In this document: one piece after another, positions 1,211-8,409 of the stretch
How the letters are laid out: the number at the start of each line of letters is the position of its first letter
Numbering within the stretch: the first letter of the stretch is position 1
Source: Escherichia phage phAPEC8
Sequence record: NC_020079.1
Reading direction: 5' to 3' (one strand)
DNA: 64,000 bases
Made by a program: the position numbers and the translations under genes
The notes under the pieces: generated by a model
What the model saw: the letters and a program-made list of their open reading frames with translations, nothing else
The model's database searches: none
Told to the model about the DNA's origin: nothing

Positions 1211-1720
1211 TTAAACAAAATAAAATGGTTGAGAGAGGCCCAAACGATTCTTTGGGTCGTATACATACCAAGCGTATGCTGTCTTATCTGTTCCACCTGC
1301 AACAAACGAAGGCCGTTCTGAAAGGACTATAAGGTTTGTTGGTGGATTCTTTTGATGGAACTCTCGTCGTTTCTTTGACTCCAAGAAGCCCAACCGAAGA
1401 AGATAAATACAAACATCCGCCTCTTTTAAGCTCTTTTCCAAGAACTCCATTGCTAACTTAAATGGAGGATTTGTGATTATAATATCGGGACGATTTTCCC
1501 ATTTATGACTAAAATAATCTTTACCTTCTTCAAGTTCGCAATATTCTGAACCTTCAGGAAAATGGCGATAAATCGCTTCAGCTTCACCTCTACAAGGTTC
1601 TGCAAAAACCCAACCTTCTTCCTTTAGATTTTTGAAATCTATAACACTAAACAAACTATTGATTGCTTTTTGCGGTGTCGGATAATAATCGCTCGTTGGG
1701 CGATCATAATCTAATGCCAT
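1211..1720 (-). CDS. small phage Dam-like DNA N6-adenine methyltransferase
   Basis: DYYPTP near N-terminus and catalytic-type motif DIIITNPPF; about 169 aa as in small phage Dam-family enzymes. Confidence 0.55.
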   Translation of the reverse strand: MALDYDRPTSDYYPTPQKAINSLFSVIDFKNLKEEGWVFAEPCRGEAEAIYRHFPEGSEYCELEEGKDYFSHKWENRPDIIITNPPFKLAMEFLEKSLKEADVCIYLLRLGFLESKKRREFHQKNPPTNLIVLSERPSFVAGGTDKTAYAWYVYDPKNRLGLSQPFYFV

Positions 1721-2138
1721 CTAAAATCTCCTCTTTTGTAATATTATCCAACTCTTTAAAGGATGAAATCTCGTTTAATAATCCTATTTGATCAGCTTCT
1801 AGAGGATAAGTGTTTTTATCTGTTTTTCTAGACAGGATATCTTCAACAAACTTATCAATAGCCAAAGAAGAATCATAAAATTTTAAAAGTTGGTAATCCA
1901 TAGGAGATATTTTGTCATCTCTTAGAAATATTTCTAACATGTTTTCAGGAGTATCGTGGTTTAGTTTATGTTCACCAAAAATATTAACTTCGTAAACATC
2001 TTTGCCAAACCAACGTTTCTTCTTTTCAACAGTATAGGTTTTTGCCACCAGACCATCTAAACAGTTTCTTGCCCTCTTACATGTTTGACGGTAAGAGTGG
2101 ATAGCGCCTTCAACAAACTTAGCAGGAACTTGTAACAT
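1704..2138 (-). CDS. hypothetical protein (144 aa)
   Basis: ORF track. Confidence 0.4.
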   Translation of the reverse strand: MLQVPAKFVEGAIHSYRQTCKRARNCLDGLVAKTYTVEKKKRWFGKDVYEVNIFGEHKLNHDTPENMLEIFLRDDKISPMDYQLLKFYDSSLAIDKFVEDILSRKTDKNTYPLEADQIGLLNEISSFKELDNITKEEILDGIRL

Positions 2139-2183: not shown

Positions 2184-2876
2184 TTAAATAGCGGTTCCTT
2201 CGAAATCCGCCACATTTACGAGATTAATATTTTCAGATTTAGAAGTCAAGTTGTTTTCTGCAACAGATTTTTCTTCAGTATCCGCCTCGTTACCTGCCAC
2301 GTTACGAGGTTCTTCTTCACCGTAGGGATTACCGAATTTCAAAAGATTGATCAATTCTTCTTTGGAGAAGTTTTCTAAATCATCGTCTGTTAATTCAATA
2401 ATCTCGTCTTGTTCTTCAATAAATGTTTCACCACCAGAAAAAGCATCTCGCTTTTTAGCTACTTCCATAGCCTGTTCTGGTGTTGCCCCTGCATCAAGAG
2501 CAGCTAAAGCAAAGTCTGACCCACTTCCTACCGCATAATATTCTTCATCAATCGGATATGCACGTGTTGGGTTGTTACCTTCGTGCAGGAAAATACGTCC
2601 GTCTGGATGAACAACAAGTGCAATAAACTCTTCATCTTCTTTATCTGGATCAGAGTGAATCATCAAACCAGGGACAGCATCACGTGCTGCTTCGCACTGT
2701 AGATTTTGTTCAAACCATTGAAAGAAAGAAAGCACGGAGGTCAGACGACCAGCACCACCTACAAGGTAATCTCCAATTTTTCGGACCTTTTTGAAATTAA
2801 TAGAATCTACACGTCCACCAAAAGTTACCTTACCGTCACTCAAAATCTTATTTTTGGTTGCAATAATTGTCGTCAC
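2184..2876 (-). CDS. HslV-like N-terminal-threonine peptidase (proteasome family) with acidic C-terminal tail
   Basis: N-terminus MTTIIA (Thr right after Met), KVRKI, GGAGRLTS, AVGSGS motifs align with E. coli HslV (TTIVSV, KVRRL, AGGTADAF, AIGSGG). Confidence 0.55.
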   Translation of the reverse strand: MTTIIATKNKILSDGKVTFGGRVDSINFKKVRKIGDYLVGGAGRLTSVLSFFQWFEQNLQCEAARDAVPGLMIHSDPDKEDEEFIALVVHPDGRIFLHEGNNPTRAYPIDEEYYAVGSGSDFALAALDAGATPEQAMEVAKKRDAFSGGETFIEEQDEIIELTDDDLENFSKEELINLLKFGNPYGEEEPRNVAGNEADTEEKSVAENNLTSKSENINLVNVADFEGTAI

Positions 2877-4870: not shown

Positions 4871-5131
4871 TTACTCCGCAATTTGAGCCATGAGATCACG
4901 CAGTTCGGTAAAACCGCCTACGTATGTTACCTCCCCGTTCACTTCAGACAGAATTTGTGGAAATGTGCGTGGAGGAACTCCGGTAAGATCAACAACTGTT
5001 TTAGTCATTGATTCTAAATCATAGTCTTGATCAAGACTTAAATATTCAAACTGTTTATTGCGCATGGTTAATAGTTGTTTTGACATTTCACAAAATTGAC
5101 AGTTAGGTTTACCAAAAATTACAAATTCCAT
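4871..5131 (-). CDS. glutaredoxin-like protein (NrdC/NrdH type)
   Basis: CQFC redox motif near N-terminus, TFPQI and GGF motifs; adjacent to the nrd genes. Confidence 0.65.
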   Translation of the reverse strand: MEFVIFGKPNCQFCEMSKQLLTMRNKQFEYLSLDQDYDLESMTKTVVDLTGVPPRTFPQILSEVNGEVTYVGGFTELRDLMAQIAE

Positions 5132-5973
5132 TACCTCTCCTTATTAAGTAATACTGCTAAAGACTGTTCAATACCTTTATTTAAATCTGATTTTGTAAGA
5201 TAGTGACTGGTTACTAGTTGTGACTTCATCGGACGTGCTGCTGGAGCATTATAGGTTGAAGCTGATACCGCCGATATCTTAACAGGTTCTGGCATCTGTG
5301 TCAAGATCTTTTCCGCAAACTCCGCCCAAGAAATAAGATGGCTTCCTGCAAAATGGTAAGTCTTAACAGACCTTGACCAACCTGTTCTTAATACTTCAAA
5401 AATAGCTTCTGCTAAATCTGGAGCATATGTTGGACAAGAGAACTGATCAGCAACAATAATAAAATCACGTTGTCCATCATTATAGCGAGACAACATGGTT
5501 TTTAGAAAGTTATTTCCAAATTCGCTATATACCGAGGCTGTTCGAATAATATATGCATTTGGGTTAACTCCTCGCACCATTTTTTCACCAAGTTCTTTCG
5601 TATACCCATAATTGTTTATTGGGTTAGGTGTAGTATCTTCAAAAATAGGATGAGAATAATTAAAAATATAGTCTGTAGAAATATGCACAAAATCAATTTT
5701 AAGTTTGCTGCACACTGCCGCAATATTTGCAGGTCCATACGCATTAACAGCCAAAGCAGTAGCAAAATCATGTTCTGCTTTATCTACAGCCGTATAAGCG
5801 GCGCAATTAATAACACCATCTACATAATCTTCAATAATAGCGTTTCGCACAGCTTCAAAATTTGTAATATCTACACGTTCTTTAGGATAAATTAAAGATA
5901 CATTTGAAGGAGCCACTTTACGTAAAGCTTGTCCCAGTTGTCCATTACCGCCCAATACCAGATATGTTAGCAT
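5131..5973 (-). CDS. rmlD: dTDP-4-dehydrorhamnose reductase
   Basis: GGNGQLG Rossmann motif, NCAAYTAVDKAE, STDYIF, YGYTK motifs matching RmlD. Confidence 0.85.
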   Translation of the reverse strand: MLTYLVLGGNGQLGQALRKVAPSNVSLIYPKERVDITNFEAVRNAIIEDYVDGVINCAAYTAVDKAEHDFATALAVNAYGPANIAAVCSKLKIDFVHISTDYIFNYSHPIFEDTTPNPINNYGYTKELGEKMVRGVNPNAYIIRTASVYSEFGNNFLKTMLSRYNDGQRDFIIVADQFSCPTYAPDLAEAIFEVLRTGWSRSVKTYHFAGSHLISWAEFAEKILTQMPEPVKISAVSASTYNAPAARPMKSQLVTSHYLTKSDLNKGIEQSLAVLLNKER

Positions 5974-6533
5974 ACACCCTCGCTACGTAACTGTTGAAAA
6001 GATTTAGCCATTGCATCTTTTGTTGATAGAATAGGTTTAAAACCTTCGTCAAAAATCATATCGAAGCCCCAATCGATCCCTATATCAGGATCATCCCAAC
6101 GTAAACTTTGTTCACTAGAAGGGTCGTATGGAGTTGTGCATTTGTATTCAAAGATAGCATCCATACTCAAAACTATAAAACCATGAGCCAAACCAGGCGG
6201 AAGCCAAAACTGCGTATGGTGTCGTGCACGAAGAACAACACCGTCCCAAGCACCGTAAGTTGGACTATCTTTACGTAAATCTACAGCGAAATCCAATACT
6301 TCCCCACTTACACAACGAACTAGCTTACCTTGCGGGTTATTTGTTTGAAAGTGCATTCCTCGCAAAACACCGAAGTTTGATTTAGACATGTTATCTTGAA
6401 CGAAAGTTTGTCTACCAATAATATCTTCGTATTTTTGTTCATTATATGTTTCTAGAAAGAAACCACGATCATCTTTATAAACGTCTGGTTTGATAATTAC
6501 CGCACCTTCAATTTTTGTTTTTTCTACTTTCAT
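5967..6533 (-). CDS. rmlC: dTDP-4-dehydrorhamnose 3,5-epimerase
   Basis: Start moved to the internal ATG at 6533 ([26 protein letters not shown]..), giving an ATGA overlap with rmlA; the track ORF extends 40 codons further into rmlA. Confidence 0.8.
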
Positions 6534-7408
6534 TTTCTCTCCGCTAATTTGAGTAGGTATTGCCCGTACTCTGTTTTCTTCAGTGAGTTTCCATGATACA
6601 CCAAAGTCTCTAAAGAAATCCACCCTTTTTTGAAAGCAATTTCTTCCAAGCACGCAATCTTCAATCCTTGACAGTTCTCAATAGTCTGCACGAATTGACC
6701 AGCTTCCATCAGACTGGCGTGTGTTCCTGTGTCAAGCCAAGTAAATCCTCGTCCGAGAACTTCCACTTGTAACTTCCTGTCTTCTAGGTAGCTGCGATTG
6801 ATATCAGTGATCTCCAGTTCTCCACGCGCGGAAGGGGTTACTTCTAATGCACGTTGAATAACAGAGTTATCATAGAAATACAAACCTGTGACAGCATAAT
6901 CTGATTTAGGATTTTCAGGTTTCTCTTCAATAGAAATAGCTTGACGATTACTCCCAAATTCAACCACACCGAATCGTTCAGGATCTTTCACCAAATACCC
7001 GAAAATACAAGCTCCGCCCCAAACATCTACCATCTCACTGGCGTTAATCAGTAGTTTACCAAAGCTTTGTCCGAAGAATAGGTTGTCACCTAAAATAAGA
7101 GCAACAGAGTCTTCTCCGATAAAATCTTTACCTATGATGAAAGCTTCCGCAAGACCTCGTGGCTCGGATTGGATTGCGTAAGTGAGTTTTATCCCAAACA
7201 TAGACCCATCTCCGAGAAGATACTCAAAGTCTTCCTGATCACCTGGTGTGGTGATGATTAAAATATCCTTAATGTCAGCCAACATCAATACCGATAAAGG
7301 GTAGTAGATCATGGGTTTGTCATACACAGGGAGCAATTGCTTGCTCACACTGCGTGTTACCGGATGAAGGCGGGTTCCACTTCCTCCCGCCAAAATAATA
7401 CCTTTCAT
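6530..7408 (-). CDS. rmlA: glucose-1-phosphate thymidylyltransferase
   Basis: [19 protein letters not shown]-terminal nucleotidyltransferase signature; 292 aa. Confidence 0.9.
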
Positions 7409-7416
7409 AACCCTCC

Positions 7417-8409
7417 TTAAATTTTCTCACTCCACCATTGAGGGTTGTTTAAGTACCATTCAATCGTTGAGTAGAGATCTTGTTCAAATGTAGAGTTTGC
7501 ACTCCAGCCCAGTTCAGACTCTATCTTAGAAGGATTGATTTCATAACGCAAGTCATGTCCTTTACGATCTTCAACAAAAGTTATCAAGTTGGAAGAAGGG
7601 TAGGTTACTGCTTCTGGATGTACAGTATCCATATAGTCACAAACCATATAGATGATCTCCATATTGGTTTTGGGATTACGTGTTCCAACATTATACGTTT
7701 GACCTGGTTCTCCACCTGTTGCCACTTGAAGAATAGCTCGCGCATGATCCTCAACAAAAAGCCAGTCTCGCACCTGGTCGCCTTTACCATACACCGGAAT
7801 CTCTTTATTCGTCAAGATACTTGTGATGATTTTTGGGATCAGCTTTTCTGGATGTTGATAAGGCCCAAAGTTATTGGAGCAGTTGGTTATCACAACAGGC
7901 AAATCGTAGGTGCGGTGCCAAGCTTTCACAAGATGGTCAGATGCTGCCTTAGACGCACTGTACGGGCTTGAAGGGGCATAAGCTGTCTCTTCGGTAAAGG
8001 GAACGCCAGAGTCTGCCATATCGCCGTACACTTCGTCTGTGGAGACGTGTACGAACATCTTCAGTTTATTTTTTGGGAGGAGCCTTGCAGCTTCCAATAA
8101 ATTGTATGTACCGATAATATTGGAGTCGATGAAAACTCGTGGATTCTTGATAGAATTATCCACATGACTTTCTGCCGCTAAGTGAATGATGAAGTCAGGA
8201 TTGCACTCTACTACTAAACTTTTGACCTGGGTTTCGTTTGCCAAATCTGTCATGCTTAGTTTAACGTGAGTGATATCGCCTACATTCTCAATATCTGCTG
8301 CATAGCCCATCTTATCAACGACAAAAACTTCGTTATTAGGATCTTGACAAAGAGAGCGCACCACGGCACTCCCAATAAAACCAAGACCACCTGTTACCAG
8401 ATAGCGCAT
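7417..8409 (-). CDS. rmlB: dTDP-glucose 4,6-dehydratase
   Basis: [24 protein letters not shown] and YSASK motifs of SDR dehydratases; 330 aa. Confidence 0.9.

Follow-up and report, generated by a model that had tools for sequence, protein, structure and literature searches.

The window analyzed here, a stretch of 64,000 nucleotides from Escherichia phage phAPEC8 (sequence record NC_020079.1), carries at positions 1211 to 1720 a gene for a 169-amino-acid protein that is predicted, with very little doubt, to be an active amino-methyltransferase. We consider it probable that this protein is an orphan DNA methyltransferase which would form N6-methyladenine (m6A) within a short recognition motif and would confer a narrow anti-restriction benefit at most. 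The enzyme would be a single-domain, S-adenosylmethionine (SAM)-dependent N6-adenine methyltransferase consisting of the gamma-class catalytic Rossmann core alone. By analogy with M.TaqI, SAM would be bound at motifs I to III, the target adenine would be flipped into the pocket formed by N84-P-P-F87, where F87 and F139 would stack on it, and the methyl group would be moved to the N6 position of the adenine. The substrate would most likely be double-stranded phage DNA during replication. Provided with neither a cognate nuclease nor a conserved partner, the enzyme would work alone as an orphan and, as one of three small methyltransferases in the phage genome, it would protect narrowly at most and would not serve as a general shield.

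Catalytic core, predicted fold and protein family

The open reading frame (ORF) for a 169-residue protein with DYYPTP and DIIITNPPF motifs that had been proposed in the initial annotation is indeed present, and both motifs can be read directly from the DNA. It is the only one among the ORFs of at least 90 codons in the window that contains a (D/N)PP(Y/F) motif. The coding sequence and its motifs are arranged as follows:

1211..1720, minus strand: coding sequence of the methyltransferase, 169 amino acids, with ATG at 1718-1720 and stop codon TAA at 1211-1213; orthologous to gp229 of phage tuntematon and gp056 of phage phi92
1673..1690, minus strand: motif X-like DYYPTP, residues 11-16; consensus D-x-Y-x-T-P, T15 invariant, Y13 and P16 conserved to at least 90%
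1586..1600, minus strand: motif I-like EPCRG, residues 41-45, the loop that follows strand 1 and is predicted to bind SAM; E41, P42 and C43 invariant, G45 conserved to at least 90%
1460..1486, minus strand: motif IV DIIITNPPF, residues 79-87, the catalytic (D/N)PP(Y/F) loop; T83, N84, P85 and P86 invariant
1304..1315, minus strand: RPSF, residues 136-139, a motif VIII-like strand-loop; R136, P137 and F139 invariant

In an alignment of 35 homologs reaching down to 42% identity, the invariant positions are T15, E41-P42-C43, T83-N84-P85-P86, F93, E100, R118, R136-P137-F139 and W151; such invariance across the homologs means that the motifs are not chance occurrences. NPP[FY] is found in all 34 non-redundant viral representatives, and D-x-Y-x-T-P in 28 of them.

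The fold of the protein is confidently predicted; the model places strand E39-41 at motif I and strand E80-83 at motif IV. Fold comparisons yielded scores of 13.2 for the M.TaqI-like lmo1582, 13.0 for MmeI, 12.9 for M.TaqI, 12.0 for M.BseCI, 11.9 for HsdM and 11.6 for CamA, and the gamma-class DNA m6A enzymes are thus matched at the same level as the small RNA m6A enzymes PH1948 (13.2), METTL5 (12.8) and ErmC' (11.9). A structure search of BFVD returned only members of the same family or generically named phage methyltransferases. The motifs follow the gamma-class order, with DYYPTP (residues 11-16) preceding EPCRG (41-45), E62/D68 (motifs II/III), NPPF (84-87) and RPSF (136-139). Since 141 to 159 of the 169 residues align to catalytic domains, the whole protein is accounted for by the Rossmann core and there is no space for a target-recognition domain.

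Because such a domain is absent, the sequence to be methylated would have to be selected by loops of the core itself, probably by the loop at residues 134-148, into which some relatives have a Cys4 element inserted; with selection by core loops alone, a short recognition motif is to be expected. A Cys-rich (Cys4) insertion directly follows RPSF in 7 of the 35 aligned homologs, and the family member orf8 of phage K139 possesses a C-terminal zinc ribbon. In the phAPEC8 protein the loop after RPSF is short and is the least confidently modeled part, the predicted local distance difference test (pLDDT) value dropping to 74-85 at residues 131-150. As a minority of the relatives bear the Cys4 insertion at this very place, the loop is likely to be a substrate-contact element.

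A search of the PHROGs collection revealed a full-length match of the protein (residues 4-163) to phrog_799, "DNA methyltransferase" (E=8.1e-59, 201 bits). An exhaustive profile search retrieved 13,551 clusters (counted at 50% identity) at E<=1e-3 and 7,054 at E<=1e-10, nearly all of them of 160-220 amino acids, and none of the 247 close homologs carries a precomputed Pfam domain. Phrog_799 thus unites a very large number of small, standalone proteins and has no Pfam model. Using tblastn, we found relatives in 544 phage records: 63 phAPEC8-like (Phapecoctavirus-type) records with copies at least 95% identical, 62 phi92-like records at 80-90% identity, including the BASEL phage EmilieFrey/Bas61 at 84.6%, and 419 further phage records with more distant copies. 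A protein of Escherichia phage MRostami-2023b is 100% identical; identity amounts to about 47% for the orthologs of the rV5-like Vequintavirinae and to about 35% for the relatives in Vibrio K139-like and Aeromonas P2-like temperate phages. Long family members are rare; one of them, P0224 (L007:347-2029; 560 amino acids), carries the methyltransferase core at residues 378-544, and its N-terminal region and context contained no recognizable domain and nothing informative. Another long gene call comprises 419 amino acids (L049). Matches on plasmids stem mainly from phage-plasmids, and we therefore rejected the anti-defense islands of conjugative leading regions as the plasmid setting of the family.

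Several observations weigh against the interpretation that we favor. The protein is mildly acidic (isoelectric point 5.5) and lacks a recognition domain, a combination that is unusual for a sequence-specific DNA enzyme. No Pfam model scored above threshold, the matches obtained being sub-threshold ones at motif IV (EcoRI_methylase, E=0.034; MTS, 0.24); the NCBIfam search returned nothing, and the restriction-modification (RM)-derived PADLOC model MTase_II is barely matched (3.4e-4). We found no characterized member of phrog_799, so that substrate and specificity have to be inferred. Neither the protein nor the family profile gave a significant match among the PDB sequences, where the hits were marginal and fell on motif IV, the site on which all of the weak Pfam, PDB and PADLOC matches are centered. 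The curated gamma-class models PF07669, PF02384, PF13651 and PADLOC MTase_II were likewise not passed.

Relationship to Dam enzymes and nature of the substrate

The complete phage genome, as represented by tuntematon, encodes two further small putative DNA methyltransferases outside the window, gp120 and gp211, neither of which has a Pfam match. The first (L017:4211-5005) is a gamma-type NPPF enzyme of 264 amino acids encoded beside the DNA polymerase gene and a distant paralog of the protein studied here. The second (L016:2292-2975) comprises 227 amino acids, contains a GFPPCT motif, is C5-cytosine-like and belongs to phrog_757.

The protein had initially been assigned to the small phage Dam family, a placement that was correct insofar as we are dealing with a small, adenine-type (NPPF) SAM-dependent methyltransferase, as judged by the phrog_799 match and the fold. 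Membership in the Pfam family PF05869 is a different matter: its model (gathering threshold 28.1 bits) did not match the protein even at E<=10, and the positive control, Dam of phage HP1 (orf13, 173 amino acids), scored 250.8 bits. We then compared profiles with hhalign. The studied family aligned with PF05869 at 85.9% (E=5e-6) over 157 columns, collinearly and with all motifs in register, and with the gp120-type gamma family at 94.9% (E=4e-8) over 154 columns; PF05869 and the gp120-type family gave a non-significant 1.2% (E=0.044) over 20 columns. In these alignments DYYPTP is paired with DLWATP of PF05869 and with QYYTNP of gp120, and EPCRG with EPSAGEG of gp120. Profiles were needed on both sides, as single-sequence hhalign comparisons were uninformative (HP1 Dam, 45%; gp120, 28%). 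The gp120 protein itself matches RM-derived type II methyltransferase models (PADLOC MTase_II, 1.5e-36). Since the studied family is closer to the gp120-type gamma family than to PF05869, it is most fittingly viewed as a gamma-type catalytic core with nothing added, and PF05869 would be a more distant cousin that is either architecturally convergent or anciently related.

Measured against the gamma-class enzymes (M.TaqI/Eco57I-type, HsdM, MmeI), the protein has the same motif order and catalytic-domain fold but ends at the catalytic core: it possesses neither a C-terminal target-recognition domain nor a specificity subunit, a cognate nuclease is absent, and the Eco57I, N6_Mtase and EcoRI_methylase models of Pfam remain below threshold.

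The best-surviving alternative, to which we nevertheless grant only a rather small probability, is that of a true functional Dam enzyme, which would place m6A specifically at GATC and supplement the work of the host Dam on phage DNA that is being replicated rapidly. Such an enzyme would protect against MboI/DpnII-type enzymes or play a role in replication, packaging or mismatch-repair evasion. Consistent with this possibility, the family shares with the PF05869 enzymes, among them the cloned HP1 Dam, a minimal architecture of about 170 amino acids in a single domain with collinear D-x-(W/Y)-x-T-P, NPP(Y/F)S and R-(I/P)-x-F motifs, in addition to the remote profile match described above. Both families occur in phage replication modules; the family member of a K139-like P2-type phage lies just upstream of rep in the early replication operon, and HP1 has its PF05869 Dam in the corresponding operon. 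GATC is, moreover, not avoided in the window (261 copies observed versus 285 expected, a ratio of 0.92), but this is to be expected anyway in phages of Dam+ enterobacteria. The complete failure of the PF05869 model and the closer relationship to a non-Dam gamma family speak against a Dam enzyme, as does motif I, which reads LDxCA in PF05869 and EPCRG here. Both families furthermore co-occur in one metagenomic phage (L013:2251-7538), where a D12-like gene, a PF05869 Dam, the family member and a second D12 methyltransferase form an island within 5 kb, and D12 and PF05869 enzymes are neighbors at other loci as well. This co-occurrence with Dam-type enzymes suggests a non-redundant specificity.

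As the fold does not decide between DNA and RNA, we turned to the genomic context of the family. In a streptococcal phage (prophage), the family member follows genes for RecT and a Holliday-junction resolvase; its neighbors in metagenomic phages and on a cyanobacterial plasmid are DnaB and DNA polymerase A. For a neighbor tally, we clustered 80 viral loci at 60% identity, which left 34, and searched the 116 proteins encoded one or two genes away (positions ±1 and ±2) with Pfam. Other DNA methyltransferases were the commonest functional class, with nine matches (two each to N6_N4_Mtase, MT-A70 and D12, and one each to EcoRI-type, C5 and PF05869), followed by ribonucleotide reductase, DNA polymerase A, DnaB, ThyX, dCMP deaminase, HNH and SMC-like proteins. 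RNA-modification families were absent from the top 25 neighbor families of these 116 proteins.

An N6-adenine methyltransferase acting on tRNA or rRNA, and thus modifying phage or host RNA, would share its fold with METTL5/PH1948 (COG2263) and Erm/KsgA, and the phage does carry its own set of tRNAs. We regard this alternative as improbable, somewhat more so than a Dam enzyme. The studied gene stands in a DNA-replication and DNA-methyltransferase context dominated by precisely these classes of neighbors, has no TRMT112-like partner and shows no sequence-level match to the RNA enzymes; members of the family often occur in the replication modules of small temperate phages, and the family is homologous to one that is matched by RM-derived DNA methyltransferase models and gives a remote profile match to the DNA Dam enzymes of PF05869. 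Given this context and the kinship with a family of genuine DNA methyltransferases, DNA is quite likely to be the substrate of the phAPEC8 enzyme.

No neighboring gene is conserved family-wide in the tally, and rV5-like phages lack the ORF that lies upstream of the phAPEC8 gene, from which we conclude that the enzyme probably works by itself. A separate arrangement was observed on the 5.8-kb Paracoccus plasmid pHAE2 (L018 1476-3843), where a family member of 205 amino acids is convergent with a small ORF and a gene for a 473-residue DndB-like (DGQHR) protein. The pair lies inside a low-GC "plasmid islet" that in sibling plasmids holds a retron reverse transcriptase, a RelA/SpoT protein or an SMC ATPase, and it may represent an undescribed methyltransferase plus DndB-like defense pair.

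Restriction sensitivity and site usage

The gene had been put forward as a probable anti-restriction function, which is a reasonable default for an orphan methyltransferase of a phage. Indirect evidence speaks, however, against broad or effective protection. The BASEL study challenged phages with EcoKI, EcoCFT_I, EcoRI, EcoRV, EcoCFT_II and EcoP1_I and reported that Vequintavirinae and phi92-like phages were "exceptionally susceptible" to every class of RM system in its panel. The susceptible phages carry orthologs of the studied protein that are 85% (phi92-like) and 47% (Vequintavirinae) identical to it; the BASEL collection includes no Phapecoctavirus, and the susceptibility data therefore refer to sister genera. 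Adenine methylation of the cognate site protects against each of the six RM systems.

Site usage in the window was evaluated against Markov expectation. GTAC (0.33), CCGG (0.48) and GGCC (0.49) are avoided, and there is not a single copy of CTGCAG (PstI; 15 expected), CAGCTG (PvuII), GGATCC (BamHI), CCATGG (NcoI) or GCATGC (SphI). Such strong site avoidance, on which the phage genome itself relies, is a signature of a genome without blanket modification. GAATTC and GATATC are not avoided. We rejected these statistics as a test of specificity, because GATC is not avoided but several other A-containing palindromes are not avoided either. For phages of the phAPEC8, phi92 and rV5 types we found no published methylomes, nucleoside analyses or restriction digests, and the DNA-modification paper on the Durham collection does not cover this clade.

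Since sister phages bearing orthologs are susceptible to RM systems and sites are heavily avoided in the genome, protection by the enzyme would be narrow at best. A broad anti-restriction role is unlikely; the enzyme may protect narrowly against particular restriction enzymes beyond those tested so far. A non-specific or nearly non-specific adenine methyltransferase that blankets the phage DNA and affords broad anti-restriction would fit the missing target-recognition domain, and phage-borne enzymes of this type exist (PMC3299994). Like the studied protein, Hia5, Hin1523, Nme1821 and M.EcoGII are orphan adenine methyltransferases of phages or prophages, and an anti-restriction function has been proposed for them; yet the Hia5-type enzymes are 281-residue, alpha-class Dam relatives and unrelated to it. 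With its orthologs residing in phages susceptible to all six BASEL systems, and with strong site avoidance being needless under blanket modification, this alternative is very improbable, and a non-specific shield is effectively excluded. That the protein is catalytically inactive or moonlights by binding SAM or DNA without methyl transfer is hardly credible, for although the second glycine of motif I has been lost in the phAPEC8 lineage (EPCRGEAEAI versus the consensus EPCRGxGAI), the catalytic residues are all invariant, the fold prediction is confident and conservation is strong over hundreds of phages.

The suggestion that the methyltransferase acts together with a sugar pathway in a layered protection of the phage genome found no support: the BASEL phages are sensitive to RM systems "despite a putative dTDP glycosylation machinery" (dTDP, deoxythymidine diphosphate), and the equivalent sugar machinery of phi92-like phages gives no RM resistance in that study. 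In the window, a complete dTDP-L-rhamnose pathway (rmlD, rmlC, rmlA, rmlB) is encoded at 5131-8409 (minus strand) plus 4871-5131, next to a glutaredoxin gene, and the near-identical tuntematon carries four glycosyltransferase genes (gp113-116) elsewhere in its genome; the sugar might be destined for DNA, the virion or the host surface.

Gene neighborhood and biological meaning

The methyltransferase gene is preceded by the following elements:

1728..1733, minus strand: Shine-Dalgarno sequence GAGGAG, 7 nucleotides upstream of the ATG and within the 3' end of the upstream ORF, as read from the sequence
1704..2138, minus strand: upstream ORF of 144 amino acids, phrog_15078; its stop overlaps the methyltransferase start by 17 nucleotides

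The methyltransferase ORF is thus furnished with a strong Shine-Dalgarno site. The 144-residue product of the upstream ORF matches phrog_15078 at E=4e-83, had no match in a Pfam scan and showed no similarity to the protein encoded at the same position in the rV5-like phage nomo. We therefore rejected it as a conserved partner: it is lineage-specific, absent from rV5-like phages and devoid of a Pfam domain.

The first 8 kb of the window are 99.4-99.7% identical to Phapecoctavirus genomes such as ASO2A, PNJ1809-36, tuntematon and nieznany, the value for tuntematon being 99.6%. The counterpart gene gp229 of tuntematon, labeled "DNA methyltransferase" already in RefSeq, lies in a leftward block together with genes for PhoH, an HslV-like peptidase, lysozyme, glutaredoxin, rmlABCD and ribonucleotide reductase. 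In the window, the HslV-like gene (2184-2876, minus strand) encodes a protein of 230 amino acids whose N-terminal part is a proteasome/HslV-like domain (Pfam Proteasome, 1e-5) and whose C-terminal tail is acidic, and the order PhoH, HslV-like gene, methyltransferase is kept across phAPEC8-, phi92- and rV5-like phages. A perfect GC-rich hairpin (TGCCCC-TTCG-GGGGCA) at 2163-2178 scores as a terminator on both strands and separates the HslV-like peptidase gene from the pair formed by the 144-codon ORF and the methyltransferase gene; it may delimit a transcription unit or stabilize the mRNA. Two ORFs of 70-110 amino acids, gp224 and gp225 of tuntematon (L001:2932-3521; window approximately 1-520), bear the RefSeq label "histidyl tRNA synthetase"; their length falls far below that of such an enzyme, and the label is probably an annotation artefact.

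Public records already include an annotation of the gene, and orphan DNA methyltransferases of phages are of a well-known kind. The practical value of our analysis is accordingly limited: it corrects the over-specific label "Dam-like" and tempers the anti-restriction story. There is a small chance that the selected function is not anti-restriction at all, since the core has been conserved in the supergroup of Stephanstirmvirinae and Vequintavirinae, which is nevertheless hypersensitive to restriction. Methylation might then serve as an epigenetic self-mark by which phage nucleases or the packaging and replication machinery could tell phage from host DNA, or as a counter-defense opposing systems that sense unmethylated replicating DNA; the protein could also be a "mini-methyltransferase" with an unusually short motif, of use as a tool enzyme. 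The pairing with a DndB-like protein on pHAE2 hints that the core can also be the modification half of an undescribed two-gene defense module. For the family as a whole, knowing what a single member recognizes would allow thousands of phage genes to be annotated and would show how a methyltransferase without a recognition domain chooses its target.
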